The position numbers and the translations under genes were made by a program. Shown here piece by piece: positions 33,781 through 51,924 of a stretch of 64,000 nucleotides of DNA. The DNA lies in NCBI GenBank assembly GCA_963699325.1, contig CAVOTN010000003.1, positions 154,600 through 218,599 of the forward strand, read 5' to 3'. Below the pieces are notes generated by a model. That model searched no databases, was not told the DNA's origin, and was given only the letters and a program-made list of their open reading frames with translations. The first letter of the stretch is position 1; each line of letters begins with the position of its first letter. This stretch comes from an uncultured Solirubrobacterales bacterium. Lineage in GTDB: Bacteria; Actinomycetota; Thermoleophilia; Solirubrobacterales; Solirubrobacteraceae.

Positions 33781-35472
33781 CTGGACGCGGCGCTGAGCGA
33801 GATCGCACGTTTTCTCGCGGGCCGCGCGCCGTTCGACGCGCTCTCGCCCGAGGAGCTCGGGGAGGTCGCGTCGCAGACCGAGATCGAGTTCTACGTGACG
33901 GGCGCCGCGATCCTGACCGAGGACGGTGGACCGGTCACGTTCCTGCGCGTGATCCACTCGGGGGCGGTCGACATCATCCACGACGGGCGGCTACTCGACA
34001 TGCTCGGCGTGGGCGACACGTTCGGTCACGCCGCGATGCTGTCGGGGCTTCCCCCGGGGTTCGAGGCGCGGGCCGCCGAGGACACGCTGTGCTACCGGAT
34101 CCCGGTGAGCGTCGCGCGGCCGTTGTTAGACCGCGTCAGGGAGCGCTCGGTTGAGGTCGTCGGCGGGGCTCCGGAGCACCGGCCGGTCACGCGGTTGCTC
34201 CGTTCCCCGACCGTGCGCTGCGAGCCGATGGAGAGCATCCGCGAGGTCGCGCGGCGGATGACCGATACCGGCGCGAGCTCCGCGATCGTCGACCTGCGCA
34301 GCGGCGGGTTCGGGATCGTGACCGATCGAGACATCCGGACGAAGATCGTCGCAGCGGGCCTGCCGCTGAGCGCGCCGGTGGCGACCGTCATGACCACACC
34401 GGTGTTCACGGTCGGGCCCGACCGGCTCGGCGGCGACGTGCTGTTCGAGCTGCTCGAGCGCGGCATCCGCCACGCGCCGGTCGTCACCGAAACCGGGCAG
34501 CTGGTCGGCGTGATCGAGGACGCCGACCTGTTCCCGGCGCAGTCCCGTTCGTGGTTTGGGGCCCGGCGGTCGATCTCGCGCGCCGGTTCGACCGAGGATT
34601 TGGCCGCGGTGGCGCGGCGTCTGCCCGAGGTGGTCGCGGACCTGCACGCCGCGCGCCTGCGCGCGCCCGAGGTGGTCCGGGTGCTCTCAGCGCTCGTCGA
34701 CGCGCTGACCACGCGGGCGCTCGAGTTGGTCGCGCCGGCGCCGGCGTCGGATGGGCTCGTATGGGTGGCGCTCGGCAGCCAGGCGCGGCGGGAGCTCACG
34801 CCGGCATCGATCGCGCGCGGCGCGGTGGTGTGTCATGAGCCGCCGGCCGAGGAGTGGACGCGCTCGGTGGGGTCGGTGTTGCGCGCGTGTGGGTTCCCGG
34901 GCGAGGTGGTCGCGAGGAGCACCGACGAGTGGAGCCACAGCGACGGCGAGGACGAGCTGTCGCTGTCCGTACTGATCGAACGGAGGGCTCTGTGGGGGAC
35001 ACCGGTCGATCCACTGCCGGCCGCCGACGGGGCTGTCCGCGAGCGGATCATCGCGGCACTGGCGCGGCGAGCGTTGGCTACCGTTCCGCCGACAGGTTTC
35101 GACGCCGACTCCGTGCTCGAGGCGGGCGGCGGGCGCAGCGCTCGGCTGGACATCCGCCGGGACGCGGTGGCGCCGATCGTCGAGCTCGCGCGCTGGGGCT
35201 CGGCGGCCGCCGGCGTGGTCGAGGGTTCGACGCCGGAGCGGCTGCTGGCGGCGGCTTCGAGCGGTGTCCTGAGCGAGGCGGACGGGCGGACGCTCGCCGA
35301 CGCGTTCGAGCTCGCGCTCGAGTTGCGGATCGGCCATCACATGGGGCGGATCGCCGCCGGCCAGCCGCCGGACGACGAGATCGATCCCGCCGAGATCAGC
35401 CCGCTGATGCGCGACCACCTGCGGGATGTGTTCCGGGCGGTGACGACGGTGCAGCGGCGGTTGCGCTCGTGA
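33781..35472 (+). CDS. cNMP-binding/CBS/DUF294 nucleotidyltransferase-like protein, catalytic residues degenerate; CTG start proposed
   Basis: RAPFDAL, GDTFGHAAML (cNMP); GIVTDRDIR, GIRHAPV (CBS); LGSQARRELT; C-terminal DUF294_C-like. Confidence 0.88.
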   Translation: MDAALSEIARFLAGRAPFDALSPEELGEVASQTEIEFYVTGAAILTEDGGPVTFLRVIHSGAVDIIHDGRLLDMLGVGDTFGHAAMLSGLPPGFEARAAEDTLCYRIPVSVARPLLDRVRERSVEVVGGAPEHRPVTRLLRSPTVRCEPMESIREVARRMTDTGASSAIVDLRSGGFGIVTDRDIRTKIVAAGLPLSAPVATVMTTPVFTVGPDRLGGDVLFELLERGIRHAPVVTETGQLVGVIEDADLFPAQSRSWFGARRSISRAGSTEDLAAVARRLPEVVADLHAARLRAPEVVRVLSALVDALTTRALELVAPAPASDGLVWVALGSQARRELTPASIARGAVVCHEPPAEEWTRSVGSVLRACGFPGEVVARSTDEWSHSDGEDELSLSVLIERRALWGTPVDPLPAADGAVRERIIAALARRALATVPPTGFDADSVLEAGGGRSARLDIRRDAVAPIVELARWGSAAAGVVEGSTPERLLAAASSGVLSEADGRTLADAFELALELRIGHHMGRIAAGQPPDDEIDPAEISPLMRDHLRDVFRAVTTVQRRLRS

Positions 35473-36149
35473 GGCTCAGGAGGGCGCCCGAGGGGGTCGC
35501 GGCGGAGTTCGCAGATGCTGCCCCGCCCTCCGATCAGACGCCCTGGCGCGAGGCGCGCTGGTGCGCGCTCGACCTCGAGATGACCGGGCTCGATCCGCGA
35601 CGCGAGGAGATCATCGCGGTCGGGGCGGTCCCGATCGACGATGGTCGGGTCGTGCTCGGCGGCGGGATGTACACGTTGGTGCGCACGACCCGGCGATCGC
35701 AGCACGGAGCGGTGCTCGTCCACAAGCTGCGGGTGCCGGACCTTGCTGACGCGCCGCCTCTGGAGGAGGCGATCGATCGGGTCCTCGAGGCGCTCACCGG
35801 GCGGGTGCCCGTGTTCCACACCGCGGCGATCGAGCGCAGCTTCCTCGAGCGGCAGTTCGGGCGCCGGCGGGTGCAGCTGCCGGCGGTCGCCGACACCGAG
35901 GCGCTCGGGCGGGCGTGGCTGCGCCACCGCGACGGCTCCGCGCCCGAGGGCATCTCGCTCGGGCGGCTCGCCGGCGTGCTCGGGCAGCCGGCGGAGACGC
36001 CGCATCACGCGCTCGGCGACGCGCTCACGACCGCGAAGACGTTCATCGCGCTGGCGAGCTTGCTCGACACGGTGGCGCCGCAGACGGTCGGGTCGCTCGT
36101 GGCCGCGAGCCGGGCGCCGGTGGCGGCAAGGCGCTTTGGGGCGGGATGA
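35469..36149 (+). CDS. DEDD 3'-5' exonuclease (DnaQ-like)
   Basis: ALDLEMTGLD ExoI, FHTAAIERSFL, HHALGDA ExoIII; GTGA overlap. Confidence 0.92.
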   Translation: MRLRRAPEGVAAEFADAAPPSDQTPWREARWCALDLEMTGLDPRREEIIAVGAVPIDDGRVVLGGGMYTLVRTTRRSQHGAVLVHKLRVPDLADAPPLEEAIDRVLEALTGRVPVFHTAAIERSFLERQFGRRRVQLPAVADTEALGRAWLRHRDGSAPEGISLGRLAGVLGQPAETPHHALGDALTTAKTFIALASLLDTVAPQTVGSLVAASRAPVAARRFGAG

Positions 36150-37458: not shown

Positions 37459-38421
37459 GTGACTCATTTCGGCCCCCCGGATGCGACGGTCGCTCCGCGT
37501 TACACCGGCGTGCGCACGTTCGCCCGTCTGCCGAACGTCGAGCTGCCGCGTGACGACGTCGACGCCGCGGTGATCGGCGTGCCATTCGACACCGCGACCA
37601 GCTTCCGGAGCGGGGCGCGGTTCGGGCCCGAGGCGATCCGCGCCGCTTCGATGCTGCTCCGCCCGTATCACCCGGTGCTCGACGTCGACGTGTTCGACAC
37701 GCTGTCGCTGGTCGACGGCGGCGACCTGCAAATCACACCGGGGAACGCGCTCCACACGACCGAGCAGATCGACGAGCAGCTCCGGCCGCTGCTCGCGGCG
37801 GGGATCGTGCCGCTCGTACTCGGCGGCGATCACTCGATCGTCCTCGGCGAGCTCCGCGCCCAGCACGCCGCGCACGGCCCGGTGGCGCTCGTGCTGCTCG
37901 ACGCCCACGCCGACACCTGGGATCAGTACTACGGCGAGCGCTACTTCCACGGGACCCCGTTCCGCCGCGCGGTCGAGGAGGGGCTCATCGACCCGGCGCG
38001 CTCGCTGCTCGCGGGCATGCGCGGCCCGCTGTACGGGCCCGAGGACCTCGACGTCCCGCGCGAGCTCGGGTTCGAGGTCATCCCCGGACCGGACCTGGTG
38101 GCGATGACGCCCGACCAGTACGGCGACCGCGTCCGCGCCCGGATCGGCGACGGGCCGGCGTACCTGTCGTTCGACATCGACGTGCTCGATCCGGCCTCTG
38201 CGCCCGGAACCGGGACGCCCGAGGTCGCGGGCCTCCAACCGCGCGAGGCGCTCGCGCTCCTGCGCGCGCTCGCTGGGATCGCCTTCTCCGGGTTCGACGT
38301 GGTCGAGGTCGCGCCGGCGTACGACTCGCCGGGTCAGATCACCGCGCTCAACGCCGCCGCGGTCGCGTTCGACCTGCTGGCGCTGCTGGCGGTGGCGCGC
38401 AGCCGCGACCGCCGTGCCTAG
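37459..38421 (+). CDS. speB: Agmatinase-like ureohydrolase
   Basis: GARFGPEAIR, GGDHS, DAHADT, HGTPF, SFDIDVLDP, APGTGTPE; exact substrate uncertain. Confidence 0.85.
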   Translation: MTHFGPPDATVAPRYTGVRTFARLPNVELPRDDVDAAVIGVPFDTATSFRSGARFGPEAIRAASMLLRPYHPVLDVDVFDTLSLVDGGDLQITPGNALHTTEQIDEQLRPLLAAGIVPLVLGGDHSIVLGELRAQHAAHGPVALVLLDAHADTWDQYYGERYFHGTPFRRAVEEGLIDPARSLLAGMRGPLYGPEDLDVPRELGFEVIPGPDLVAMTPDQYGDRVRARIGDGPAYLSFDIDVLDPASAPGTGTPEVAGLQPREALALLRALAGIAFSGFDVVEVAPAYDSPGQITALNAAAVAFDLLALLAVARSRDRRA

Positions 38422-38490
38422 GCGTTAGAGACTCGTCGAACCTCAGCCCCAGGGGCTCATGGCAGAGCCGGGTTCGGCCGACGCAACCAT

Positions 38491-40536
38491 GTGATGTCAG
38501 GGAGACGCTCGCCGTTCGTCAGCGACGCCCGGCGCGAGGGCTCGCCGGGGCGGTCGAGGACGCGGCGGGTCGCGCTCTGCGTGCTCGCGCTGCTCATCGC
38601 CTGGGCGATCACCTACGAGCTCGCGTTTACCGTGTTTACCAGCCTGCTCGACGCCGTCCCATTTCACGGGATCGCGCCCGACGTGGTCTTCCTGATCGCC
38701 GCGTCGCTGCTGATCTGGCGGGGCCTCGGCGGCGAACGCGGCTGGATGCTCATCGGGATCGGCGCGGTGTGCTGGGCTTCGGGCGACATCTACTGGACGC
38801 TCGCGCTCGGGAACCTCGCCAATCCACCGGTGCCGTCCCTGGCGGATGCCGGCTACCTGTCGTTCTGCCCGTTCGCGTTCGCGGGGATCCTGGCGCTCGT
38901 GCGACAGCGGATGTCCGGCGTGCCGAAGGCGCTCGCGGCGGACTCGGCCGCGGCCACCCTCGCGGTCGGCGCACTCGGCGCGGCGCTCGTGGTCCAGCCG
39001 GTTGTCGCCCACGCCGACGGCGGAGTCCTCGCAGTCGCCACAAACCTCGCCTACCCGATCTTCGACCTGCTGCTGCTCGGCCTGATCGTCGGCGCGACCG
39101 CGCTCGGCAACTGGCGCCTGAACCGGACGTGGGTGCTGCTCGGCGCGTCGGTGCTCGCGTTCTGGATCGCCGACAGCGTGTACGTCGTCGCCGACGCCAC
39201 CAACACGTACACCCAGAACGACTGGTACAACGCGCTGTGGTACTGGTCGCCGATACTCGCCGCGTCGGCGGGGTGGCTGCCACGCCGCGTGTCGGTGCCC
39301 GCGCCCGGACGGGTCAGCGCGCGCGGGATCGTCATGCCAGTGGCGTTCGCGTCGGTCGCAATCGGCATCCTCGTCTGGTCGAGCTTCGATCGGGTTGGCG
39401 TGATCGCGATCGTCCTGGCCACGGGCTCGCTGTCGGTGGTCATGGGCCGTCTCGTACTGACGTGGCGAGAGAACGCGCGCCTGCTTCGTGCGAGCCAGGG
39501 GGAGGCGCTGGCCGACGCGCTGACCGGCCTCGGGAATCGGCGCGCGCTGCTTGCCGATCTGGAGCGGCGACTTTCGACGACGCGCGACGACGGCTCGCTC
39601 ACGCTCGTGCTGTTCGACCTCGACGGCTTCAAGCAGTACAACGACAACTTCGGGCACCCGTCGGGGGACGCCCTGCTGCGCCGCCTCGGAGCGAAGCTCG
39701 AGTCTCACCTCGGCGCCACCGGTCGTGTGTACCGGATCGGGGGCGATGAGTTCTGCGCTCTGATCGACGCCCCGCCGGGCGCTTCGGACGCTCACGTGCA
39801 GGCCGCGGCGCGAACGTTGTTCGAGCAGGGAGACGGCTTCACGATCGGGTGCTCGCACGGTGCCGTGCTCCTGCCGACCGAAGCGCAGGATGCGAGTGCC
39901 GCGCTCACGATCGCCGACCAGCGGATGTACGCAGACAAGCGGGTCGGCCGGGTGTCCGCGGCGCAGCAGTCAAAGGATGTGCTACTGCGCGCCGTCGCCG
40001 AGCGAAACCGCGAGCTGGGCGCGCACGGGCGCGATGTCGCTGAGTTGGCCGCCGCCGTCGCCGCCGGGTTCTCCCTGCCACCGGACGAGATCGAGATGAT
40101 CCGCCATGCCGCGGAGCTCCACGATGTCGGCAAGGTGGCGGTGCCAGACGCGATCCTGGACAAGCCGGCTGCGCTCGACGAGACCGAGTGGGCCTTCATC
40201 CACGAGCACACGATGATCGGCGAGAAGATAATCGGGGCTGCGCCCGATCTCGCGCGCGTGGCCAAGCTGGTCCGCTCGAGCCACGAGAACTTCGACGGGA
40301 CCGGCTATCCCGATCGGCTCGCACGCCGAGAGATCCCCCTCGGCGCGCGGATCATCGCGGTGTGCGACGCGTTCGATGCGATGACGACCGACCGGCCCTA
40401 CCGCGCGGCGATGGACGAGGAAAGCGCGCTGGCCGAGCTCGTGCGCTGTGCCGGCACCCAGTTCGACCCGGACGTCGTCGAGCGCTTCTGCGCGGCACTG
40501 GCGCCGGAGCGAACAACTCTGCCGCGCGCGGCGTAA
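38491..40536 (+). CDS. Membrane-bound GGDEF + HD-GYP protein
   Basis: Multiple N-terminal TMs; DLDGFK, YRIGGDEF; LHDVGK, HENFDGTGYP, VCDAFDAMT.DRPYR. Confidence 0.94.
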   Translation: MMSGRRSPFVSDARREGSPGRSRTRRVALCVLALLIAWAITYELAFTVFTSLLDAVPFHGIAPDVVFLIAASLLIWRGLGGERGWMLIGIGAVCWASGDIYWTLALGNLANPPVPSLADAGYLSFCPFAFAGILALVRQRMSGVPKALAADSAAATLAVGALGAALVVQPVVAHADGGVLAVATNLAYPIFDLLLLGLIVGATALGNWRLNRTWVLLGASVLAFWIADSVYVVADATNTYTQNDWYNALWYWSPILAASAGWLPRRVSVPAPGRVSARGIVMPVAFASVAIGILVWSSFDRVGVIAIVLATGSLSVVMGRLVLTWRENARLLRASQGEALADALTGLGNRRALLADLERRLSTTRDDGSLTLVLFDLDGFKQYNDNFGHPSGDALLRRLGAKLESHLGATGRVYRIGGDEFCALIDAPPGASDAHVQAAARTLFEQGDGFTIGCSHGAVLLPTEAQDASAALTIADQRMYADKRVGRVSAAQQSKDVLLRAVAERNRELGAHGRDVAELAAAVAAGFSLPPDEIEMIRHAAELHDVGKVAVPDAILDKPAALDETEWAFIHEHTMIGEKIIGAAPDLARVAKLVRSSHENFDGTGYPDRLARREIPLGARIIAVCDAFDAMTTDRPYRAAMDEESALAELVRCAGTQFDPDVVERFCAALAPERTTLPRAA

Positions 40537-40650
40537 CGTGGGGTCGCCGCTGAGCTCGAATCGGCGGTCGCGTGGCGCATAGAGGACCGATCCTGGCCTA
40601 AAACGCGGATACGGTCTCGGACACTGTCAGTGGACCGAAAGGAGCATCTA

Positions 40651-41538
40651 ATGGCCGAGCGAGACCGCTACATCCCGGGCGTGCCGTGCTGGATCGACAC
40701 GAGCCAGCCCGACCCGGAGGCCGCCGTTTCCTTCTATCGCGACCTGTTCGGCTGGGACGTCGAGGACGTTATGCCGCACGGGGCGCAGGGCAGCTACTTC
40801 ATCGCCCGGATCCGAGGCGGAGATGTCGCGGGTATCGGCGGGGTCGCCGAAGGAGCGCCGCCGGTCGCCGGCTGGAACACCTACGTCTGGGTCGACAGCG
40901 CGGACGAGATGGCTCCGAAAGTCAAGGACGCCGGCGGCACCGTGCTCACGGAGCCGTTCGACGTCATGGAGTCCGGCCGTATGGCGATGTTCGCCGATCC
41001 CGAGGGGGCGGCGTTCTGTGTCTGGCAGCCCAACCAGCACCGGGGCGCGCAGGTCGTCAACGAGGCCGGCTCCCTGAACTTCAACAACTTGAACACTCGC
41101 GACGCGGAGCGCGCGAAATCGTTCTACGGCGCGGTCTTCGGGTGGCGGACGATTGCGATGGACGGCGGCGTCGAGGCCTGGACGTTGCCCGGATACGGCG
41201 ATCACCTCGAGCTCCTCAATCCGGGAACGCGCGAGCGAATGGCCGCGATGGGCGCGCCGGCCGGTTTCGAGGACGTGGTGGCGACCCTCACCCCGCTGCC
41301 GGACGACCACGAGGACGTCTCCGCGCACTGGAGCGTGACGTTCGCCACCGACGACGCCGACGCGACCGCGGAGCGGGCCGCCGCCCTGGGCGGGAAGCTG
41401 CTGGCGCCGCCGTTCGACGCCCCCTGGGTCCGGATGACGATCGTCGCCGACCCACAGGGCGCGACGTTCATCGCGAGCCAGTTCGCCCCCGAGAACAGGG
41501 AGGTCCCCGCCCCCGGGAGCGCATCAGTGAGCGCCTAG
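40651..41538 (+). CDS. VOC family (glyoxalase/bleomycin resistance) two-domain protein
   Basis: GVPCWID, FYRDLFGW, GRMAMFADPEGAAF, DPQGATF. Confidence 0.93.
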   Translation: MAERDRYIPGVPCWIDTSQPDPEAAVSFYRDLFGWDVEDVMPHGAQGSYFIARIRGGDVAGIGGVAEGAPPVAGWNTYVWVDSADEMAPKVKDAGGTVLTEPFDVMESGRMAMFADPEGAAFCVWQPNQHRGAQVVNEAGSLNFNNLNTRDAERAKSFYGAVFGWRTIAMDGGVEAWTLPGYGDHLELLNPGTRERMAAMGAPAGFEDVVATLTPLPDDHEDVSAHWSVTFATDDADATAERAAALGGKLLAPPFDAPWVRMTIVADPQGATFIASQFAPENREVPAPGSASVSA

Positions 41539-41543
41539 CCGCC

Positions 41544-42941
41544 TCAGAACAGCTGCAGGTAGCGGTCGAGCTCCCACTGGGTGATCTGCTCGTGCGCGGC
41601 CTGCCACTCGCGGCGCTTGACCTTCGCGAAGTAATCGACGTAATCGCCGTCGCGGGTCTTGCCGAACGCGGCGCGGAGCACATCGTTCTTCTCGAGTTCG
41701 CGGACGGCGTCGAGCAGGTTGGCCGGGAGCAGCTCGATTCCGGCCGCCTCGCGCTCATCGGGATGCATCTCGTACAGGTTGGCCGAGTTCGGCTCGCCGG
41801 CGTCGAGCTCGCGGTCGATGCCGTCGAGTCCGGACGCGAGCATCGCGGTCGCCGCGAGGTATGGGTTGCACGAGCCGTCGACCGTCCGATCCTCGATCCG
41901 GCCGGCGTCAGGAATCCGGAGCATCTGCGTGCGATTGTTGTAGCCGTAGCTCACGTACGCCGGCGCCCAGGTCGCGCCGCTCGTCGGCGCGCCCACGACG
42001 AGGCGCTTGTACGAGTTCACCGTCGGGGCGGTGACCGCGATGTAGGCCTTGGCGTTGGCCTTCAGCCCGCCGATGAACTGGTACGCGAGCTCGGATAGGC
42101 CAAGGCCGCGGGGATCATCCGCAGCGTCGCGCTCGAACACGTTCTCACCGTTCGACCACAGGCTGACGTGGAAATGGCAGCCGTTCCCGGTCAGGTTCGC
42201 GAACGGCTTGGGCATGAACGTGGCGATCAGCCCGCGCTGCTGCGCCAGCGACTCGACCATGTAGCGGTAGAACACAGCCCGGTCGCAGGTCGTCAGCGCG
42301 TCGTCGAACTGGAAGTTCTGCTCGAACTGACCATTCGCGTCCTCATGGTCGGTGGCGTAGTTGTCCCACCCAAGCCCGGTCACGGCCTTTGAGACCTGCG
42401 AGACGAAGTCGAGGTTGCGGGTCAGCGCGCGCATGTCGTAGCAGGGCAGGTCGAGGGTGTCGAGCTTGTCGGCGACCTCGATCCCGCCGTCCTCAGTGCG
42501 GCGGACCAGGAAGTACTCGAGCTCGGCGCCCATCTTCAGCTCGAACCCGAGCTCCTTGGCTCGCGCGAGCTGATTGCGCAGGATCGTGCGCGGACAGAAG
42601 GGCCATGGCTCGCCCTCGACCGTCACGTCGCACGCGAATCGCGCCACGTTCGGCTGCCACGGCAGGATCGTCAGCGTGGTCGGGTCGGGGATCGCGATCA
42701 TGTCCGGATCGTGGGGGCCCTGGCCGATGTCGCCGGCGGCGAACCCGGCGAAGCCCGCGCCGTCGGTGAGCAGGTCGTCGATGTGGTGCGCCGGGACGAG
42801 CTTGGCGCTCGGTTTGCCGTGCATGTCCACGAACTGAGCGAACAGGAACTCGATCTGTCGCTCGCTGATGATTCGCCGGACGTCGTCGGCGTCGCTGACC
42901 TGCGGCGCGGGCTCGATGCGGTGCTCAGTTGAGATAGCCAT
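41544..42941 (-). CDS. gmaS: Type III glutamine synthetase-like enzyme, probable gamma-glutamylmethylamide synthetase (GlnT/GmaS)
   Basis: QFVDMHG, GAGFAGFA, DHEDANGQFEQNF, FMPKPF..LTGNGCH, PTVNSYKR, NRTQMLRIP; linked to mgsABC-like genes. Confidence 0.82.
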   Translation of the reverse strand: MAISTEHRIEPAPQVSDADDVRRIISERQIEFLFAQFVDMHGKPSAKLVPAHHIDDLLTDGAGFAGFAAGDIGQGPHDPDMIAIPDPTTLTILPWQPNVARFACDVTVEGEPWPFCPRTILRNQLARAKELGFELKMGAELEYFLVRRTEDGGIEVADKLDTLDLPCYDMRALTRNLDFVSQVSKAVTGLGWDNYATDHEDANGQFEQNFQFDDALTTCDRAVFYRYMVESLAQQRGLIATFMPKPFANLTGNGCHFHVSLWSNGENVFERDAADDPRGLGLSELAYQFIGGLKANAKAYIAVTAPTVNSYKRLVVGAPTSGATWAPAYVSYGYNNRTQMLRIPDAGRIEDRTVDGSCNPYLAATAMLASGLDGIDRELDAGEPNSANLYEMHPDEREAAGIELLPANLLDAVRELEKNDVLRAAFGKTRDGDYVDYFAKVKRREWQAAHEQITQWELDRYLQLF

Positions 42942-43008
42942 GTGCGAGGTATATCCCGACCGAAGGGCATCCGGCAATGGCCGCAGGCACCGGGTATCGG
43001 GGGCTAGG

Positions 43009-43025
43009 ATGTGCTCTTCGCACAT
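43009..43025. promoter_or_regulatory. Palindrome, candidate operator of the GAF-PucR regulator
   Basis: ATGTGC-tcttc-GCACAT; second TCGCACAT half-site at 42940-42947 (minus strand). Confidence 0.5.
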
Positions 43026-43038
43026 AGGAGGCCAATCT

Positions 43039-44814
43039 CTGTCGACAACCTCTGAGGCCCGCGGGCTTCACGAAGAGAACCGCACCCTTTACCGGGTGAT
43101 CAACCTCGTCGGCTCGTCGATCGAGCTCGGCCCGATGCTGCAGGGGATCGTCGACCTCGCCACCGAGGCGACCGGTTGCCACGCGTGCTTCATCTACCTG
43201 GTCGAGGGCGGGGTGCTCACGATCCGGGCCGCCTCGCCGGTGTATGCCGGGGCGGTCGGTGTCGTACAGATGCGGCTCGACGAGGGGCTGACCGGATGGG
43301 TCGCCAGGCACCGCCAGCCCGAGTTCATCCGCGACAACGCGATGGCCGACCCGCGGATGAAGTTCATTCCTGTGCTCGAGGAGGAGCGCTTCCAGTCGAT
43401 GGTGGCTGTCCCGATTCTCTCCCGCGCGGGTGAGACGATCGGCGTGATCGTGCTCCACACCGAGGCGCCGCGCGAGTTCACCGAGGACACGCTCAAACTG
43501 CTCGTCCACATCGCGTCCCTGGTGTCGGGCGCGATCGAGAACGCGCAGCTGTACGACCAGCAGCGCCGCCGGGTCGACGCGCTGACGAGCCTGTCCGGAC
43601 TCGCGCAGGAGGTCGCGACCGCGGGCGACGCCGCGGAGATCGGGCGCGCGGTCACGCTCGGGATGCGGCGGCTGCTCGGGGCCGAGGTGTGCCAGCTCTA
43701 CCGGTTGGACCGCGACGGCAGCGGCCTCCAGCTCCTGTTCTCCTCGCCGGAGACGACGGCGGAGCTCGAGGCCCTGTCGGCGACGGCGCTACTCCTGGCG
43801 GCGTTTGACGCGAGCGCGTCGCGACCGCCGGCGCGAACGTTGTGGCCTGGCCTCGATGTCGCCGATCTGCTGATGACCCCGCTCGTGTCGGGTGGCGAGC
43901 GGCTCGGGCTGCTGTGCGCCGGCGCGCCGCCACGACGGCCGTTCACCGGCGAGGACACGGAGATGGCGCGCGCAATCGCGCATCTGGCGGCGATCGCGAT
44001 CAAGCGGGCGGAGCTGATCGAGGGGCTGACCAATGCGAACACGGTCAAGGACCTGTTCGAGGCGCTCGCCGCGGGCGCGACGACGTTTGCGGCCACGAAG
44101 GCGGGGGAGGTTCGTTGCGACCTGTCGCGGCCGTACGTGATGCTGTGCGCCGAGCCGGCCGCCGGCCGTGAGCAGGGCTCGGGCGAGTGGCGGGCCGCGG
44201 CCGAGGTGCTCGGCAGGGATCTGTCCGAGCTCGCGCCGCGCGCCGCGGTCGAGGCCGGTCCGGGCCCGGTGCGGGCGGTGCTGTCGTTGGGCACCCGCGG
44301 TCCACAACGGATCGAAGAGGTGGTACGGGGGTGCCGCGAGCTCGGCCGGCGTCGCGGCGCCGCGATCGGGCTGAGTGAGCTCCACGAGTCCGCGGCCGAC
44401 TCGGCGCGCGCCTATCGCCAGGCCCTCGACGCGACGATGATCGGGCGCGCGTTGCTCGGCGACGGCGGCGCGATCGGGTATGCCGAGGTGGGCGCGTACC
44501 GGTACCTCGTGCACATCGGCGCCGAGAACGCCCCGCACGATCGCATGCGGGCCGCCGTCGACCGCCTGATCGCGTACGACGCGCGGCGGCGCACATCGCT
44601 GCTCGACACGCTCGAGCGTTATCTGGCCGAGCGGCGGAGCGTGATCGAGTCAGCGCGCGAGCTGTTCATCCACCCGAACACGCTGCGCCAGCGCCTCGGG
44701 CGGATCGAGGAGCTGACCGGCCTGCACCTCGACGAGGACGACCTGCTGTCGCTCGAGCTGGCGATCAAGCTGGCGCGGCTGCACGGCCGTCCGGGGGCAG
44801 CGCGCCTCGGATAG
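43039..44814 (+). CDS. GAF-GAF-PucR/CdaR family transcriptional regulator; CTG 43039 (or ATG 43009) start
   Basis: Two GAF regions; LLDTLERYL, ARELFIHPNTLRQRLGRIEELTG PucR HTH. Confidence 0.92.
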   Translation: MSTTSEARGLHEENRTLYRVINLVGSSIELGPMLQGIVDLATEATGCHACFIYLVEGGVLTIRAASPVYAGAVGVVQMRLDEGLTGWVARHRQPEFIRDNAMADPRMKFIPVLEEERFQSMVAVPILSRAGETIGVIVLHTEAPREFTEDTLKLLVHIASLVSGAIENAQLYDQQRRRVDALTSLSGLAQEVATAGDAAEIGRAVTLGMRRLLGAEVCQLYRLDRDGSGLQLLFSSPETTAELEALSATALLLAAFDASASRPPARTLWPGLDVADLLMTPLVSGGERLGLLCAGAPPRRPFTGEDTEMARAIAHLAAIAIKRAELIEGLTNANTVKDLFEALAAGATTFAATKAGEVRCDLSRPYVMLCAEPAAGREQGSGEWRAAAEVLGRDLSELAPRAAVEAGPGPVRAVLSLGTRGPQRIEEVVRGCRELGRRRGAAIGLSELHESAADSARAYRQALDATMIGRALLGDGGAIGYAEVGAYRYLVHIGAENAPHDRMRAAVDRLIAYDARRRTSLLDTLERYLAERRSVIESARELFIHPNTLRQRLGRIEELTGLHLDEDDLLSLELAIKLARLHGRPGAARLG

Positions 44815-44823
44815 CGCAGCCTC

Positions 44824-45327
44824 TTACTCCTCGTCGAACACCAGGAACACGGCGATCTTCGCCCTGTTCGCCTTGCGGCGGACCCGTTGCGGCTCCTGTG
44901 ACCAGACGAAGTCGGCGACGAACCGGTTGCGGTCGGGGTCGGCGGCCATCACGATCGCGTCGCAGCCCGCGAACTTGGCCTCGTCGATGATCCGCTTGGT
45001 CGACTTGCGCGTGCCCACGACGTGCCCGTCGGCATCGATGCCCTTGCGCTCGAGGCGCTTGACCGCCTTGTCCACGATCGAGCGCTGCTCGGCCCACTCG
45101 GCCTTGGTCGGGAGCAGGCCCGGGCTTTGCATCCCGAACGCGACGCCGTGAATGCGGGCGATCGTGAACACCCGGACGCTGGCATCCGAGGGTTTGGCGA
45201 GCTCAACCACGCGCGCGATCGCGGCGTCGGAGAACGGCCGGCCCTCGGACGCGAGCAGGATCCGCTCGAACGGCCCCTCGGACGGGCTTCCGGGCTCCTG
45301 TTTTGTCAGCCTGGCCGTCGCACTCAC
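44824..45327 (-). CDS. Universal stress protein
   Basis: FERILLASEG, DAIVMAAD; GTGA overlap with permease. Confidence 0.78.
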   Translation of the reverse strand: MSATARLTKQEPGSPSEGPFERILLASEGRPFSDAAIARVVELAKPSDASVRVFTIARIHGVAFGMQSPGLLPTKAEWAEQRSIVDKAVKRLERKGIDADGHVVGTRKSTKRIIDEAKFAGCDAIVMAADPDRNRFVADFVWSQEPQRVRRKANRAKIAVFLVFDEE

Positions 45328-46886
45328 GGGTCGGACGCGCCCGCGATCGGGGCAGGCGTACCCGCCGCGACCATCTGCTCGGCCGGCGCCGGTCGCTTGT
45401 CCTCGACTCGCTTGCGGTAGGCGTAGAAGAGCAGGTAGGACAGCAGCACGGCCCAGCCGATGAAGTAGTACGGCAGCGTCTTGCGCCCGGCGGCGTTACA
45501 CGTGCAGTTCGCGTACACGGGGCCGCCGTAGAAGTAGATGACCGCGTACACCGCCGCGATCACCAGCGCGACGTACTTCATCCACTCCGGCAGCTTGAAC
45601 GGCCGGCGCACGTTCGGGCGGTGCTTGCGGAGCAGGAAGTAGCCGATCAGCACCGGGATGAACGAGGCGAGGTAGCCGACGTTCGAGAACGTGTAGATCT
45701 CGACCGCGCCGCCCATGAACACGACCGCGATCGAGCAGGCGACGTTGAACCACATCGCGCGGTTCGGTACGCCGTGCTGGTTGACCCGCTGGAAGAAGCG
45801 CGGGAACTGACCGTCGGTCGACATCTGGTGCAGCGACCGGGCGGTGCCGGTGATCGCGTTCAGCGCCGACAGGATCAGCGCCAGGATCAGCATGATCGCG
45901 ATCAACCACTCGAGGATGCTGCTGCCGGTCCCCGTCCCGAACACGGCTGCGGCGTAGTGGACGAAGATCGTCTTGGGGTCGACGAGCGCCGCGTTCCCGA
46001 GCGCGGGGAGACCGAGCACGATGATGAACGCCACCGGGATCATCGTGTAGATGAACAGGCCATAGAGGCCCTCGAGGTTCATCGCGATCTTGGCATCGCG
46101 GTCGGGGTTGCGGGTCTCGCCGATGTAGCACGCGGCGGCCTCCATCGCGATCACGTTCCACGTCAACAGGAACGAGAACGCGAGGTACAAAGTGAGCCAT
46201 CCGTGCCCGAACAGCGGCGTGAAGAAGCCGCTGCCGTTGACGTGGCGGAAGTGCCACAACCAGTCGAAGTTGACCGCTGAGGGATTGAAGATCCACGAGA
46301 TCGCCAGGAACGTCAGCGGGATCATCGAAAGCAGCGCCAGTGTGGTCGCGAACACCGTCCCGAACCGGAGCCCCCTCACCGCCGGAATCGCAAGCAGCAG
46401 CAGCCCGCCGATCGAGATCCCAAGCGTCCACCAGGCGATCGGCGTGTGGATCGGGGTGAAGCCAGCCGTCGAGAGCTTGAAGCGGTCGACGATGTAGAAC
46501 GAGGCCAGGATCATGTTAAGCGGCGCAACCGGGAACCAGCCGAGCCAGTACGCCCAGGCCGTGAACCCGTTCACGTGCTCGGCGAACCGGGGCCATCTGT
46601 CCTTGTAAGCCGGGTACGCGTAGGACGGCAGGCCGCCGGAGCGGTCGGGCATCATTGCCGACAGCTCAGCGAGCAGCAGGCACACGATGTACCCGCTGAT
46701 CGTGATCACCACGATCACGGGAACGGACGCGGCACCGAGCTCGGTGACCATCACCGGCGCGATCCCGGTGACCAGGATCGTGCCCGCGAGGCCGATTACG
46801 AACGCGCCCCACCAGTTCGTCGTCTTCGGCAACCCGGCAGACTCGTATACGAGTTCGTCGTGTCCCGCTGATGAACCGTCCGCCAT
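45324..46886 (-). CDS. APC family amino acid/amine permease
   Basis: About 12 TMs; AELSAMMP.RSGG, YIGET.NP, RPFKLP. Confidence 0.93.
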   Translation of the reverse strand: MADGSSAGHDELVYESAGLPKTTNWWGAFVIGLAGTILVTGIAPVMVTELGAASVPVIVVITISGYIVCLLLAELSAMMPDRSGGLPSYAYPAYKDRWPRFAEHVNGFTAWAYWLGWFPVAPLNMILASFYIVDRFKLSTAGFTPIHTPIAWWTLGISIGGLLLLAIPAVRGLRFGTVFATTLALLSMIPLTFLAISWIFNPSAVNFDWLWHFRHVNGSGFFTPLFGHGWLTLYLAFSFLLTWNVIAMEAAACYIGETRNPDRDAKIAMNLEGLYGLFIYTMIPVAFIIVLGLPALGNAALVDPKTIFVHYAAAVFGTGTGSSILEWLIAIMLILALILSALNAITGTARSLHQMSTDGQFPRFFQRVNQHGVPNRAMWFNVACSIAVVFMGGAVEIYTFSNVGYLASFIPVLIGYFLLRKHRPNVRRPFKLPEWMKYVALVIAAVYAVIYFYGGPVYANCTCNAAGRKTLPYYFIGWAVLLSYLLFYAYRKRVEDKRPAPAEQMVAAGTPAPIAGASDP

Positions 46887-46983
46887 GTGTCCTCCAAAAC
46901 GCGGTTGTACTTACCCGCGGCTAGGCTCCCACGTGGCCGGTGCACGTCCCAGGCGAGATGCGCACACAATTGCGGGTCCCCAC

Positions 46984-48813
46984 ATGGAGCACTTGGACAC
47001 ATTCCTGGCCCGCCACCCTCCGTTCGACGCGCTCGATCCTGACGAGCTCCGCGACCTTGCCGCGGGCGCCCAGGAGCACGCGTACGACACCGGGGAGGCG
47101 GTGCTCGTCGAGGACGGTTTGCCCACGCCCGGGCTGTGGGTGATCGTCACCGGGTCGATGGACATCGTGCACGACGGGGAGCCGATCCAGGTGCTCGAGC
47201 CGGGCGAGTGCTTCGGCCACCCGTCGCTGCTCACCGGTATGGCACCCGCGTTCACCGTGCGTGCGCGCGAGCCTTCGACGTGCGCGCTGTTCGGCGCCGA
47301 GGCGGGGCGGCGAATCCTCGGGACGGAGGCGGGCGCGGCGTACGTCGCGAACTCGATGCGAAAGCGGCTCACGATCGCCGGTCACACGGTGCACGGGCTG
47401 CCGGACGTTGGCACCACGCCGGTGGCGCTGGTTATGAGCCGGGCGGAGTTCTGCGAGCCCGACGAGCCGTTGCGCGCGGCCGTGACACGGCTCGGGCGGG
47501 ACGGGGTCTCGGCGCTGCTGGTCCAGCTCGACGACGGCGCCTTGGGGATCCTGTCCGACGCCTCGATCCGCGCGGCGGTCGCGGTCGACGGCGTCCCGCT
47601 CGACGCGCCGGCGCGCGCGGCAGTCCTGACTCCGGTCGCGACCGTCCCGCCGACCCAGCTCGCGATCGAGGCGACCGTCGAGATGCTCGCGGCCGGGTCA
47701 GAGCACCTGGCGGTGCTCGACGGTGATCGGATCTGCGGCCTGCTGTCCGCCACGGACCTACTCGGCCTCGATACACGCAGCCCGATCGCGCTTCGCCACA
47801 TGCTCCTCGGCGCTCCCGACGAGGACACGCTGGTGCGCGCCGCGGGCGAGATTCCGAAGCTGTTCCTGCTGCTCTCCCGGGCTGGCGTGCTCCCGCGCGA
47901 CCTCGGCCGGGTCCTCAGCCTCCAGCACGACACCGTCGTCGCCCGGCTGATCGACTTCTCGATCTGGAGCCGCGGACCCGCCCCGGTCCCGTGGGCGTGG
48001 CTCGACTTAGGGAGCGCGGCCCGGCGGGAGTTCACGCTTGCCTCGGACCAGGACAACGCCCTCGCTTATGCGTCGGTGGAGCCGGACGCGGTCGAGGCGG
48101 TCGACGGGTACTTCGCGCTGCTCGGCACCGATGTCAACGACGGCCTCGTCAGGTGCGGGATCGGGATCGACAACAACGGCGTGCTCGCCGGCAACCGCCA
48201 GTGGCGGATGTCCAAGGACGCATGGCTGCGGACTTTCGATAGCTGCCTGAACGAGCCCGACGAGTCGCACCTGATCCGGGCCACCGTGTCGTTCGACTTT
48301 CGCCCGACCGCCGGCGGCCTGGCTGTCGCCGCCGAGCTGACCGCGCGGATCCGCGCCGCCCGCCACCACGCGCAGTTCATGCGGCTGATGGCGCGGACCG
48401 CGACCGGCTACCCGGTGGCGCTCGGGTTCCGCGGCCAGCTCGCCACCGGACACGACGGCGATCCCCCCGGGAAGCTCGACCTGAAGCGCGGCGCGATCAT
48501 CCCGCTGGTCAACCTGGTGCGGTTCCACGCGCTGGCGGCCGGCGTGACGATCTCGCCCACGCTCGACCGGATCGAAGCGGTCGCCAGCGTCGGCGAGCTC
48601 GACCGCGCGACGGCGGACGCGCTGCGCGAGGCGTTCGTGGTGATCAACAGCATTCGCTTCGAGCACCATGCGGCCCAGGTTCACGCGGGCGAGACGCCCG
48701 ACAACCTGGTCGATCCCGAGGAGCTCGCGCCGATCGCGCGCACCGACCTGCGCGAGGCGCTCAACGTGGTGCGGCGGGCCCAGAAGCGTATCGGCGCGTG
48801 GTCGCCGCCGTAA
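46984..48813 (+). CDS. cNMP-binding/CBS/DUF294 nucleotidyltransferase (GlnE/GlnD-like fold), intact catalytic motif
   Basis: HPPFDAL, GECFGHPSLL; CBS pair; LGSAARREFTLASDQDNAL; SFDFR; DLKRG. Confidence 0.93.
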   Translation: MEHLDTFLARHPPFDALDPDELRDLAAGAQEHAYDTGEAVLVEDGLPTPGLWVIVTGSMDIVHDGEPIQVLEPGECFGHPSLLTGMAPAFTVRAREPSTCALFGAEAGRRILGTEAGAAYVANSMRKRLTIAGHTVHGLPDVGTTPVALVMSRAEFCEPDEPLRAAVTRLGRDGVSALLVQLDDGALGILSDASIRAAVAVDGVPLDAPARAAVLTPVATVPPTQLAIEATVEMLAAGSEHLAVLDGDRICGLLSATDLLGLDTRSPIALRHMLLGAPDEDTLVRAAGEIPKLFLLLSRAGVLPRDLGRVLSLQHDTVVARLIDFSIWSRGPAPVPWAWLDLGSAARREFTLASDQDNALAYASVEPDAVEAVDGYFALLGTDVNDGLVRCGIGIDNNGVLAGNRQWRMSKDAWLRTFDSCLNEPDESHLIRATVSFDFRPTAGGLAVAAELTARIRAARHHAQFMRLMARTATGYPVALGFRGQLATGHDGDPPGKLDLKRGAIIPLVNLVRFHALAAGVTISPTLDRIEAVASVGELDRATADALREAFVVINSIRFEHHAAQVHAGETPDNLVDPEELAPIARTDLREALNVVRRAQKRIGAWSPP

Positions 48814-48949
48814 CGCGGCGTGTGTGGTCAGACCGCGTCGGGCGCTAAGAACGCGTGAAGAAGTAGAGCCCGCAACCACATTCGCACCTGAAACTGTGCG
48901 CGTGAGCGCCATTGGACCGGTCATCCGCAGGGTCTAGCCTCACCGCGAC

Positions 48950-49861
48950 GTGTGTGGGATAGCAGGTCTTTACACGAAGTCGGCCACGCTTCGTGAGCAC
49001 CTCGGCACGCATCTCGCGAGCATGCTCGAGCAGCTCTCGGACCGGGGTCCTGACAGCGCCGGCGTCGCGTTCTACCGCGATCCGGCGCCGGCTGGGTGGT
49101 GCAAGGTGTCACTGCACTCGCCCTCGCCCACGCCCGATTGGGAGGCGCTGACCGCCGAGCTCGAGGTCGAGTTCGGCGAGGCCTCGCCACCGCGGGTGCG
49201 GGCGACGCACGCCGTGTTCGTGATCGCCGCCGAGGCCGACGAGGCGCAGGCCTGGCTGATCGAGTGTCACCCCGAGCTGACCTTGATGAGCGCCGGGCGC
49301 TCGATCGAGATCTACAAGGAGGCAGGCCCGCCGGGACGGTTCGTCGAGCGCTTCGGACTGACCGAGATCACCGGCAGCCACGCCCTGGGCCACACCCGGA
49401 TGGCGACCGAGAGCCGCGTGACCACCGAGCACTCCCATCCGTTCTCGACCGGGCTCGACCTGTGCCTCGTCCACAACGGCTCGCTGTCCAACCACAACCG
49501 GCTGCGGCGGTCCTTGGCCCGCGAAGGGATCCGGTTCAGGACCGACTGCGACAGCGAAGTCGCCGCCGGCTACCTGACCTGGCGGCTGCGGGAGGGGGCG
49601 TCTCTGGAGGAGGCGCTCGAGGGTTGTCTCGACGACCTCGACGGCTTCTACACGTTCGCGGTCGGGACCGCCGACGGCTTCGCCGTGCTGCGCGATCCGA
49701 TCGCGTGCAAGCCCGCGGTGATGGCGGAGACCGATGAATGGGTGGCGATGGCGTCCGAGTACCGGGCGATCGCGGTGCTGCCGGGGGCGGAGGACGCGGT
49801 CCTATGGGAGCCCGCGCCGGGCCACGTCTATAGCTGGGGCACCGCTTCGTTGGTGGCGTGA
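48950..49861 (+). CDS. mgsA: Class II glutamine amidotransferase, N-methylglutamate synthase subunit A-like (GlxB)
   Basis: MCGIAG N-terminal Cys, RGPDSAG, GHTRMATES, HPF, HNGSLSN, DSE. Confidence 0.88.
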   Translation: MCGIAGLYTKSATLREHLGTHLASMLEQLSDRGPDSAGVAFYRDPAPAGWCKVSLHSPSPTPDWEALTAELEVEFGEASPPRVRATHAVFVIAAEADEAQAWLIECHPELTLMSAGRSIEIYKEAGPPGRFVERFGLTEITGSHALGHTRMATESRVTTEHSHPFSTGLDLCLVHNGSLSNHNRLRRSLAREGIRFRTDCDSEVAAGYLTWRLREGASLEEALEGCLDDLDGFYTFAVGTADGFAVLRDPIACKPAVMAETDEWVAMASEYRAIAVLPGAEDAVLWEPAPGHVYSWGTASLVA

Positions 49862-50580
49862 TGGCCGAGGTGGGGGTGCAAGTCACGCGGGAGGCGTTGT
49901 GGTCGTTCGACCTCGCCGAGCAGACGGTCCGCGAGCTGAACGCGCAGTTGCATGAGGCAACCTCTTCTGACGGCGGCCGGGTGGTCGTGCTCAACCCCGG
50001 CGGGCGCCACGCGATCGCAGTCGGGCTCGACGCCCCCTACGAGGTCGAGATCGAAGGTCACGTCGGCTACTACTGCGCCGGCATGAACAAGCTCGCGAGC
50101 GTGCGCGTACGCGGGAACTGCGGCGTCGGCGTGGCCGAGAACATGATGTCCGGAGTCGTGGTTGTCGAGGGGAGCGCCTCGCAGTCCGCGGGCGCGACCG
50201 CCCGTGGTGGCTTGTTGGTGATCCACGGCGACGCGTCCGCGCGATGCGGGATCTCGCTGAAGGGCGCCGACATCGTCGTGCGCGGGTCGGTCGGGCACAT
50301 GAGCGCGTTCATGGCCCAGCGAGGAAGCCTGGTGGTGTGCGGCGACGCCGGCGAGTCGCTCGGGGACTCGTTGTACGAGGCGCGGCTGTACGTGCGCGGG
50401 TCGGTGGCGGCGCTCGGCGCGGACTGCGTCGAGAAGGAGATGCGCTCCGAGCACGTGACCCAGGTGCGCGAGTTGCTGGCGCGCGCGGAGATCGACGATG
50501 TGGACCCGGCCGAGTTCCGGCGCTACGGCTCGGCCCGGCGGCTGTACAACTTCCATGTCGACAACCTGGGCAGCTACTGA
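49858..50580 (+). CDS. mgsB: GXGXG (GltB/FwdC-like) protein, N-methylglutamate synthase subunit B-like (GlxC)
   Basis: GHVGYYCAGMN, GVAENMMSG, RCGISLKG, GHMSAFMAQ.G, GDSLYE. Confidence 0.88.
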   Translation: MMAEVGVQVTREALWSFDLAEQTVRELNAQLHEATSSDGGRVVVLNPGGRHAIAVGLDAPYEVEIEGHVGYYCAGMNKLASVRVRGNCGVGVAENMMSGVVVVEGSASQSAGATARGGLLVIHGDASARCGISLKGADIVVRGSVGHMSAFMAQRGSLVVCGDAGESLGDSLYEARLYVRGSVAALGADCVEKEMRSEHVTQVRELLARAEIDDVDPAEFRRYGSARRLYNFHVDNLGSY

Positions 50581-51924
50581 TGGCTGCGTCCGCGGACTCG
50601 AACGGCTGGCATCCCGGGTTGCGCGAGTCGGCGACGTTCGACCGCGGAGTGATCGCCGAGATTCAGCGGGCCGCCCGCGAGGGCATGTACGACATCCGCG
50701 GGTTCGGGGCCAAGCGAGCGGTGCCGCACTTCGACGACCTGCTGTTCCTGGGCGCCTCCGTGTCCCGGTATCCGCTCGAGGGCTATCGCGAGCGGTGCGG
50801 AACCGACGTCGTGATCGGCACGCGGTACGCGCGCGAGCCCGTGCGCCTCGACATCCCGATCACGATCGCCGGCATGAGCTTCGGGGCGCTGTCGGGGGCG
50901 GCCAAGGAGGCGCTCGGCCGGGGGGCCACTGCGGTGGGAACGTCGACGACGACCGGCGACGGTGGCATGACCGCCGAGGAGCGCGAGCACTCTTCCGTGT
51001 TGGTGTACCAGTTGCTGCCCTCGCGGTACGGGATGAACCCAGACGATTTGCGGCGCGCGGACGCGATCGAGGTCGTGATCGGGCAGGGGGCCAAGCCGGG
51101 TGGCGGCGGGATGCTGCTCGGCCACAAGATCTCCGACCGGGTGGCGGAGATGCGCGACCTTCCGCCCGGGATCGACCAGCGCAGCGCCTGCCGGCATCCG
51201 GACTGGACGGGCCCCGACGACCTCGAGATCAAGATCGAGGAGCTGCGCGAGATCACCGACTGGCGGATCCCGATCTACGTCAAGGTCGGTGCCTCCCGCA
51301 CCTACTTCGACGTGGCGCTGGCGGTCAAGGCCGGCGCCGACGCGATCGTGCTCGACGGCATGCAGGGCGGCACGGCCGCGACCCAGGACGTGTTCATCGA
51401 GCACGTCAGGCATCCCGATCCTGGCCGCGATCCCGCAGGCGGTCGAGTCGCTGATGGAGCTCGACATGCACCGCAAGGTCCAGCTGATCGTGTCCGGCGG
51501 AATCCGCACGGGTGCGGACGTCGCCAAGGCTCTGGCCCTCGGAGCAGACGCGGTGTCGATCGGGGTGGCGGCCCTGATCGCGCTCGGGGACAACGCCCCG
51601 GGCTTCGATGCCGACTACCGGGAGATCGGATCGGCCGCGGGCTACTACGACGACTATCAGGCGGGCCTCGACCCCGCCGGCATCTCGACCCAGGATCCCG
51701 CCTTGGCGTCTCGGCTGGATCCGGTCGAGGGGGGACGCCGGCTGGCGAACTATCTGAGGACGCTGACTTTGGAGGCTCAGACGCTGGCGCGAGCGTGCGG
51801 GAAGTCGCACCTGCACAACCTCGAGCCCGAGGACCTGGTGGCGCTGACGATCGAGGCGGCGGCGATGGCGCGGGTGCCGCTGGCGGGGACGAGCTGGATT
51901 CCGGGGCTCGTCGCCTCGCCCTGA
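50580..51924 (+). CDS. mgsC: FMN-binding glutamate synthase family protein, N-methylglutamate synthase subunit C-like (GlxD); +1 frameshift at ~51408
   Basis: YPLEGYRE, IAGMSFGALS, TTGDGGM, GQGAKPGGGG, SACRHPDW, DGMQGGT; removing A51408 restores EHVGIP..VSGGIR. Confidence 0.88.

Follow-up and report, generated by a model that had tools for sequence, protein, structure and literature searches.

A DUF294/COG2905 protein of GlnE-like fold that may serve an amine-permease and USP module in Solirubrobacterales

The DUF294/COG2905 family pairs nucleotide-type sensor domains with a catalytic module resembling those of GlnE and DrrA, and its C-terminal domain, DUF294_C, has been grouped with the C-terminal domains of GlnD and GlnE in the KNTase_C clan (PMC3710099). 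Cofitness of COG2905 genes with the symporter gene next to them has been reported for Shewanella and P. stutzeri, with the guess that COG2905 is required for symporter expression (Price et al., bioRxiv 10.1101/072470). Here we describe a DUF294 gene in a 64,000-nucleotide (nt) stretch of a Solirubrobacterales metagenome-assembled genome, which is referred to as the window (G+C content about 70%; all positions are counted within it). The gene lies between an amine permease gene and mgsABC, in a cluster with a glutamine synthetase (GS)-family enzyme, as an earlier reading of the DNA letters (the sequence-only reading) had it and as Pfam and TIGR03105 matches bear out. We suggest, tentatively and with a confidence that falls a little short of probable, that its product is a metabolite-gated protein nucleotidyltransferase tied to an amine-permease/USP uptake module.

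The enzyme and its permease-USP partners

The gene is a 609-codon frame (Table 1) whose product carries four Pfam domains, cNMP_binding, CBS, DUF294 and DUF294_C, every one of them above its cut-off. This architecture is present in all listed homologues of the COG2905/DUF294 family, for which 1127 clusters (50% identity) score E<=1e-30, most of them over the full length, and the window protein is an ordinary member of this large, catalogued and biochemically unexplored family. The catalytic residues, G343-S344, D355-Q-D357 and D438 (the last within FDFR), are invariant in 54 orthologues, and the G-S/DxD/D set is also kept in the module-linked homologues from other families; judging from these alignments, the site is intact and under purifying selection. 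An intact reading frame with this domain content and a full GS..DxD..D motif set had been claimed from the letters alone, and both claims held.

An AlphaFold2 model of the 609-amino-acid (aa) protein, built from 35 sequences, had a mean predicted local distance difference test (pLDDT) score of 82 and a predicted template modelling score of 0.72. The top three Foldseek matches to this model in the PDB were the N-terminal domain of E. coli GlnE (1v4a, 4.8e-9), Legionella DrrA (6yx5, 6.9e-8; template modelling score 0.65 on the target, 12% sequence identity) and the C-terminal adenylylation domain of GlnE (3k7d, 3e-7), all of them protein AMPylases, and the other matches span the cNMP and CBS sensors only. 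A sequence search of the PDB with the DUF294 protein matched the sensor domains alone. A true actinobacterial GlnE matches the DUF294 hidden Markov model (HMM) at 5e-12, which amounts to homology at the sequence level, so the GlnE/GlnD-type fold proposed earlier is supported from two sides. Membership is another matter: the window protein gave no match to Pfam GlnE (PF03710) or GlnD_UR_UTase (PF08335) even at E<=1, whereas a true GlnE used as the control (from genome G125) scores 303 and 124 bits, and when the GlnD set of nucleotidyltransferase, GlnD_UR_UTase, HD and ACT domains was tested on the window protein, the last three were not found. The comparison thus places the protein as a homologue of GlnE-type enzymes that belongs to a sister family, DUF294/COG2905, and the GlnE-like fold of the model is best taken as a resemblance, not as GlnE membership.

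The strongest comparative signal came from the neighbours of the gene. Permease homologues were found in 10 of the 151 Thermoleophilia genomes scanned, with DUF294 immediately adjacent in nine of the ten, and G267, from another family, adds one such adjacency, making it 10 of 11 genomes with the permease. USP was found in every permease-DUF294 module examined, other families included. The trio occurs in no fewer than five families, and its genes are arranged in four ways: divergent (in the window, G249, G430 and G267), DUF294>Perm>USP (G364), Perm>USP>DUF294 (G435) and convergent (G390), so the adjacency of permease and DUF294 has outlived several rearrangements. The DUF294 tree places G249 as the sister of the window's clade and the G267 protein in a different clade. 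As far as gene order can tell, adjacency kept through rearrangements in at least five families speaks for the permease-USP pair rather than GmaS or Mgs as the functional partner, and it narrows the search for a function to a rearrangement-proof set of one APC amine permease and one USP. AA_permease_2 is also the commonest upstream neighbour of actinobacterial DUF294 genes (5/42).

The genome of the window has four DUF294 loci. The copy on contig C12 (C12:376-11536) is in an operon with genes for an APC permease and a GMC (choline-oxidase-like) oxidoreductase, beside which lie a USP-like gene, an aldehyde dehydrogenase gene and a HoxX-like formyltransferase/hydratase gene; this type of permease also adjoins DUF294 in families f2, f35 and f39. 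A DUF294 match on contig C10 (C10:96500-101500) was set aside as a fourth context because it is a frameshift-ridden near-duplicate of the C12 locus, C10 probably being a poorly polished or strain-variant contig. In G249 (L123, C12:51923-66327), the DUF294/permease/USP module is situated beside genes for a DAO-family flavin adenine dinucleotide (FAD) oxidoreductase and a formate-tetrahydrofolate ligase, and these neighbours fit a methylated-amine substrate for the permease. In family f72 (Thermoleophilia; G435, G429 and G369), there are three to five DUF294 copies per genome, mostly without a permease.

The sensor head departs from what the sequence-only reading had expected. The canonical phosphate-binding cassette of cyclic nucleotide-binding (CNB) domains has a conserved Glu (FGE) and a conserved Arg (R[ST]A). 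When the window protein was aligned to the cNMP domains of PKG and PKA, the Glu position was occupied by H79 and the phosphate-binding Arg position by P88, and orthologues and paralogues alike keep this FGH...P pattern. In the AlphaFold2 model, the cNMP-like domain is least confident in the loop of residues 80-87, where pLDDT is low. As the canonical Glu and Arg are missing, canonical cAMP or cGMP binding by this domain is doubtful, and so is the response to cNMP that had been suggested. The CBS pair, going by the general behaviour of such pairs, may sense adenylates. Both of the sensor domains that had been named are present, but the cNMP-like one does not amount to a full cNMP sensor.

Put together, the mechanism that we favour would run as follows. 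The conserved functional unit would be three genes, those of an APC-type small-amine permease, a USP and DUF294, and in the DUF294 protein the sensor head (the non-canonical cNMP-like domain plus the CBS pair) would gate the GlnE/DrrA-fold nucleotidyltransferase. Depending on what the sensor head binds in its CBS pair and cNMP-like domain, the enzyme would transfer adenosine monophosphate (AMP) or another nucleoside monophosphate (NMP) onto the permease, the USP or a regulator of the uptake module, thereby adjusting amine import to the state of the cell. An inactive DUF294 paralogue and its exonuclease, 11.5 kb upstream, would be a plausible antagonist or eraser arm.

Several points weigh against this reading. 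Protein NMPylation by DUF294 is suggested by fold resemblance only, and a literature search found no biochemical study of DUF294/COG2905 and no activity or target for any member. By-eye reading of the USP found no obvious G-x2-G-x9-G(S/T) ATP motif. Within the clade of the window, the linkage to mgsABC is as tight as that to the permease, and an upstream motif common to DUF294 and mgsA suggests co-control with mgsABC, so that Mgs or GmaS may yet be the target. Finally, the commonest downstream neighbour of actinobacterial DUF294 genes is a 3'-5' exonuclease of the RNase_T type (10/44), a partnership just as compatible, if not more so, with a nucleic-acid or nucleotide substrate.

Other substrates and partners

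The last of these points leads to the alternative that survives best and is a serious rival, although we consider it unlikely: the substrate would be a nucleic acid or a nucleotide, the enzyme either adding tails to RNA 3' ends or producing a small nucleotide signal, the DEDD exonuclease counteracting it, and post-transcriptional control of the neighbouring transporter and catabolic genes being the outcome. Pol-beta nucleotidyltransferases include many RNA- and nucleotide-directed enzymes. Besides the family-wide frequency of the exonuclease given above, this alternative draws on the arrangement within the window, where the exonuclease gene (10.8 kb upstream of the active DUF294 gene) starts with a 4-nt overlap with the stop of the paralogue DUF294b (11.5 kb upstream), indicating translational coupling. 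Most orthologous loci have the DUF294b-exonuclease pair upstream of the active copy at a distance below 10 kb, and the pair belongs to the same conserved supercluster. The sequence-only reading had stated that there is no adjacent exonuclease; this is literally so for the active copy, but the RNase_T exonuclease in the same supercluster qualifies it. On the other hand, the closest structural neighbours of the model are protein AMPylases and the helical domain groups with those of GlnE and GlnD; about three quarters of the sampled actinobacterial DUF294 genes, like the active copy here, have no adjacent exonuclease; and the exonuclease-bearing paralogue has lost its catalytic aspartates, the DxD being replaced by SIARGA and part of the nucleotidyltransferase core being deleted, which leaves DUF294b catalytically dead, while the ExoI and ExoIII motifs of the exonuclease look intact. 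An adjacent exonuclease is frequent in the DUF294/COG2905 family, yet with only 10/44 downstream neighbours in the actinobacterial sample it does not define the family. An anti-phage defence role for the DUF294 gene was rejected, PADLOC giving only a weak match between cNMP domains.

A second alternative, which we consider improbable, is closest to what the sequence-only reading had proposed as a new nitrogen switch: a GlnE-like enzyme nucleotidylating GS-III/GmaS or an Mgs subunit, with post-translational control of flux through the gamma-glutamyl/N-methylglutamate pathway. Its case rests largely on the clade of the window, in which we compared 64 orthologous loci, each from a different Solirubrobacterales species and with DUF294 identities ranging from 93% to 64%. 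The gene order hardly varies among them: GS-III(-), PucR(+), USP-Perm(-), DUF294(+), MgsABC(+). MgsA lies within 6 kb of the DUF294 gene in 52/53 loci, directly downstream of it (115-165 nt across orthologous loci), and GS-III within 7 kb in 44/49; the permease is at most 600 nt away in 56/57, the USP gene is near in 54/54, and the PucR regulator is upstream in 44/49. Beyond the clade, the linkage dissolves. In a sample of 301 Actinomycetota genomes, of which about 46 have a true DUF294 and 16 have a GS-III above cut-off, DUF294 was found within 10 kb of GS-III in 3 of these 16, all from the genus of the window, and in 0/13 elsewhere. Other Actinomycetota lineages have GS-III, mgsA, mgsB and mgsC together in a compact operon that sometimes includes a PucR-type regulator but in no case DUF294. 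The conserved linkage to gmaS/mgs thus held within one Solirubrobacterales clade and failed outside it. From these gene orders it follows that the linkage is shallow, a lineage-specific insertion and not a general rule: in the genus of the window and its close relatives, the regulator, USP, permease and DUF294 would have been inserted into an otherwise self-contained GS-III-mgsABC operon.

The permease-USP-DUF294 trio, in turn, does without a nearby GS-III: the GS-III gene lies 38 kb off in G249 and 14 kb off in G364, G390 and G430 have it on other contigs, and G435 has none; even within the clade, five loci have lost the GS-III linkage and retained the permease. Outside the clade, DUF294 genes do adjoin GS-like genes in some genomes: in G130 (L111, C59), GS-like, APC permease, DUF294 and exonuclease genes apparently make up one operon, G116 (L107, C5) has glutamine amidotransferase (GATase), GS-like and GAF-PucR genes beside DUF294-exonuclease, and in G321 (L141, C1) a GS-like gene is divergent from DUF294-exonuclease. 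Such cases (with G261 also considered) amount to about 3/55 DUF294 genes versus roughly 1.7 expected by chance, which is not significant, and they were not counted as linkage. Where GS-I has its adenylylation loop, GS-III carries an NLYE motif with a Tyr. NLY is shared, however, by GS-I-alpha enzymes that do not undergo adenylylation, and the Tyr was rejected as an adenylylation site because it is non-diagnostic.

What else favours a switch on GmaS or Mgs is the upstream motif. An alignment of 15 orthologous intergenic regions, together with a motif search, showed conserved blocks with a common GCGCACA core in the 97-nt gap between permease and DUF294 and in the gap of about 136 nt between DUF294 and mgsA. 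The conserved elements upstream of DUF294 (46900..46983) are TAGGCT and GCGCACACAATTGCG; those upstream of mgsA (48875..48949) are CCACATTC-N6-GAAAGTGTGCGC, GCCATTGG and a TAGCCT about 10 nt before the GTG start. All of them may be operator or promoter sites. The TAGCCT so close to the start suggests that mgsA is transcribed from a promoter of its own, with hardly any leader, and the shared core hints at common control of DUF294 and mgsABC, perhaps by a PucR-type regulator. Over the whole window, GCGCACACWWT turns up about as often as chance predicts (3 matches vs 2.55 expected), so its weight lies in its conservation among related loci only.

The role of such a switch also seems not to be filled otherwise. 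GlnD_UR_UTase (PF08335) had no match in 21 Solirubrobacterales genomes (that of the window and 20 related ones), the control genomes being positive, and a true GlnE used as a tblastn query found nothing in the window's own genome. The order therefore appears to be without both GlnE and GlnD, and the DUF294 paralogues are the only GlnE-like enzymes detected in that genome. Nevertheless, GmaS or Mgs is a weaker choice of target than the permease-USP pair, because the latter is the deeply conserved partner. A nitrogen switch on GmaS/Mgs is possible, but a role linked with the permease-USP module has more in its favour, and the adjacency to a GS-family gene, as a lineage-specific insertion, tempers the proposal of a new switch.

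An extension of the favoured reading, no better placed than the switch on GmaS or Mgs and hence improbable as well, is a split writer/eraser system for protein nucleotidylation, in which the active copy writes and the dead paralogue with its coupled DEDD “exonuclease” erases, on the permease/USP module or on GS-III, so as to gate the assimilation of amine nitrogen. The apparent absence of GlnE and GlnD keeps it alive, yet is no evidence for it. If true, it would provide a family of more than 1000 50%-identity clusters with its first target and show a DEDD enzyme at work outside nucleic acids. The genome offers a natural active/inactive DUF294 pair with the exonuclease on the inactive side.

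Least probable of all is that the gene has no specific functional tie, being a general metabolic-state sensor whose position is inherited synteny in one lineage: the gmaS/mgs linkage is limited to one clade, the four DUF294 loci of the genome have different contexts and DUF294 evolves faster than its neighbours (e.g. 67% identity vs 81-88%), but the permease-USP adjacency persists over at least five families and four arrangements, paralogues also adjoin APC permeases, and the published cofitness of COG2905 is with the neighbouring transporter.

Features of the window

The coordinates are given in Table 1. The permease has as its closest named family the trimethylamine N-oxide (TMAO) permease (NCBIfam NF053774), with 174 bits, far under the cut-off of 690. 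The three-gene mgsABC set (class-II GATase, GXGXG protein and flavin mononucleotide (FMN) glutamate-synthase-domain protein) is present after the DUF294 gene. Its third gene, mgsC, is split into two frames by an extra A at 51408 (GTC-A-GGC vs GTC-GGC), which was placed against the intact L006 orthologue. As all compared mgsC orthologues are intact and the assembly has other indel-ridden stretches, the extra A is likely a sequencing error. The mgdABCD-type dehydrogenase query gave one SoxD-family match, on contig C9, outside the window.

The listed frame of the PucR regulator begins at 42868 and overlaps the 5' end of GS-III; its start is probably the CTG at 43042, 7 nt after AGGAGG (43027..43044), no ATG, GTG or TTG being sensibly placed. 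Between the DUF294b-exonuclease pair and GS-III (37459..41538) are an arginase-family gene, a gene for a GGDEF + HD-GYP-type protein and a KbpA-like gene, a segment that varies among relatives. A search of the window with Rfam at gathering thresholds gave no match, and a promoter/terminator scan of it was uninformative.

Table 1. The DUF294 gene, its domains and the surrounding features of the window
Feature	Position	Strand	Basis and remarks
DUF294/COG2905 gene	46984..48813	+	ATG at 46984, 609 aa; Pfam; AlphaFold2; Foldseek
cNMP-binding-like domain, non-canonical pocket	46984..47358 (aa 1-125)	+	PF00027 at aa 34-112, 38.9 bits, 8.9e-10
CBS pair	47401..47769 (about aa 140-262)	+	PF00571, 40.7 bits, 3e-10; PDB sequence matches to CBS-domain proteins
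Nucleotidyltransferase core	47848..48297	+	PF03445 (DUF294) at aa 289-427, 100.9 bits vs cut-off 21, 7e-29
Catalytic residues	G343-S344 48010-48015; D355 48046-48048; D357 48052-48054; D438 48295-48297	+	pol-beta nucleotidyltransferase signature
DUF294_C four-helix “substrate-binding” domain	48373..48792 (aa 464-603)	+	PF10335, 131.5 bits vs cut-off 22.5, 2.6e-38
APC-superfamily permease	45324..46886	-	Pfam AA_permease_2, 1.3e-46; divergent from DUF294 gene, 97-nt gap
USP-family gene	44824..45327	-	Pfam Usp, 4.6e-9; 4-nt overlap with permease stop
Conserved GCGCACACAAT element	46960..46970	+	14 nt upstream of DUF294 start codon; alignment
CCACATTC-N6-GAAA(C/G)TGTGCGC inverted-repeat-like element	48875..48901	+	Upstream of mgsA; has reverse complement of GCGCACA core
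MgsA-like class-II glutamine amidotransferase	48950..49861	+	Pfam GATase_6/7; start GTG-TGT (Met-Cys)
MgsB-like GXGXG protein	49858..50580	+	Pfam PF01493
MgsC-like FMN glutamate-synthase-domain protein	50577..51924	+	Glu_synthase profile 53-255 in one frame, 248-312 in another
GS-III / GlnT / GmaS-like glutamine-synthetase-family enzyme (reading frame bounds)	41544..43025	-	TIGR03105, 614 bits vs cut-off 470 (does not separate GmaS from GlnT); Pfam Gln-synt_C
GAF-GAF-GGDEF-like-PucR transcription regulator (reading frame bounds)	42868..44814	+	Pfam
DUF294b paralogue	33781/33895..35472	+	Pfam; same four-domain architecture; 31% identity pairwise
DEDD (RNase_T) 3'-5' exonuclease	35469..36149	+	PF00929, 3.8e-14; PADLOC DEDDh model, 3e-26

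Comparison with known systems

Around the DUF294 gene, the GS-III, class-II GATase, GXGXG and FMN glutamate-synthase-domain genes make up the same set, in the same order, as in the gmaS-mgsABC (N-methylglutamate pathway) and glnT-glxBCD clusters, but a regulator, the USP, the permease and DUF294 separate GS-III from mgsA, whereas other Actinomycetota have the four contiguous. A further difference from the gmaS-mgsABC cluster, which comes with mgdABCD, is that the candidate dehydrogenase genes (the SoxD match) lie on another contig.

Compared with GlnE, the window protein has the same succession of a pol-beta nucleotidyltransferase core and a helical substrate-binding domain and follows the same G-S/DxD motif logic. 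However, GlnE has two nucleotidyltransferase modules under the control of PII and glutamine, whereas the window protein has one module and N-terminal cNMP-like and CBS sensors. With GlnD it has in common the nucleotidyltransferase superfamily and the clan of the helical domain, but it is without HD, ACT and PF08335, and its gene is not beside glnB/glnK or amtB. The AMPylation domain of DrrA/SidM (6yx5), the second-best structural match, is a GlnE-like protein AMPylase, but DrrA is secreted as an effector against host Rab GTPases and has no sensor domains.

The nearest systems are the COG2905 genes themselves, such as PA3233 (in the P. aeruginosa PA3232-PA3235 actP cluster), Sama_1525 and Psest_0349, which have the same four-domain architecture and length as the window gene and, like it, a transporter gene alongside. 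They differ in two respects: the partner of the window gene is an APC-type amine permease with a USP, whereas that of the PA3233 type is an SSS/ActP-type carboxylate symporter; and the active copy in the window, unlike the PA3233 type, is without an adjacent exonuclease, which sits instead with the inactive paralogue 11.5 kb off.

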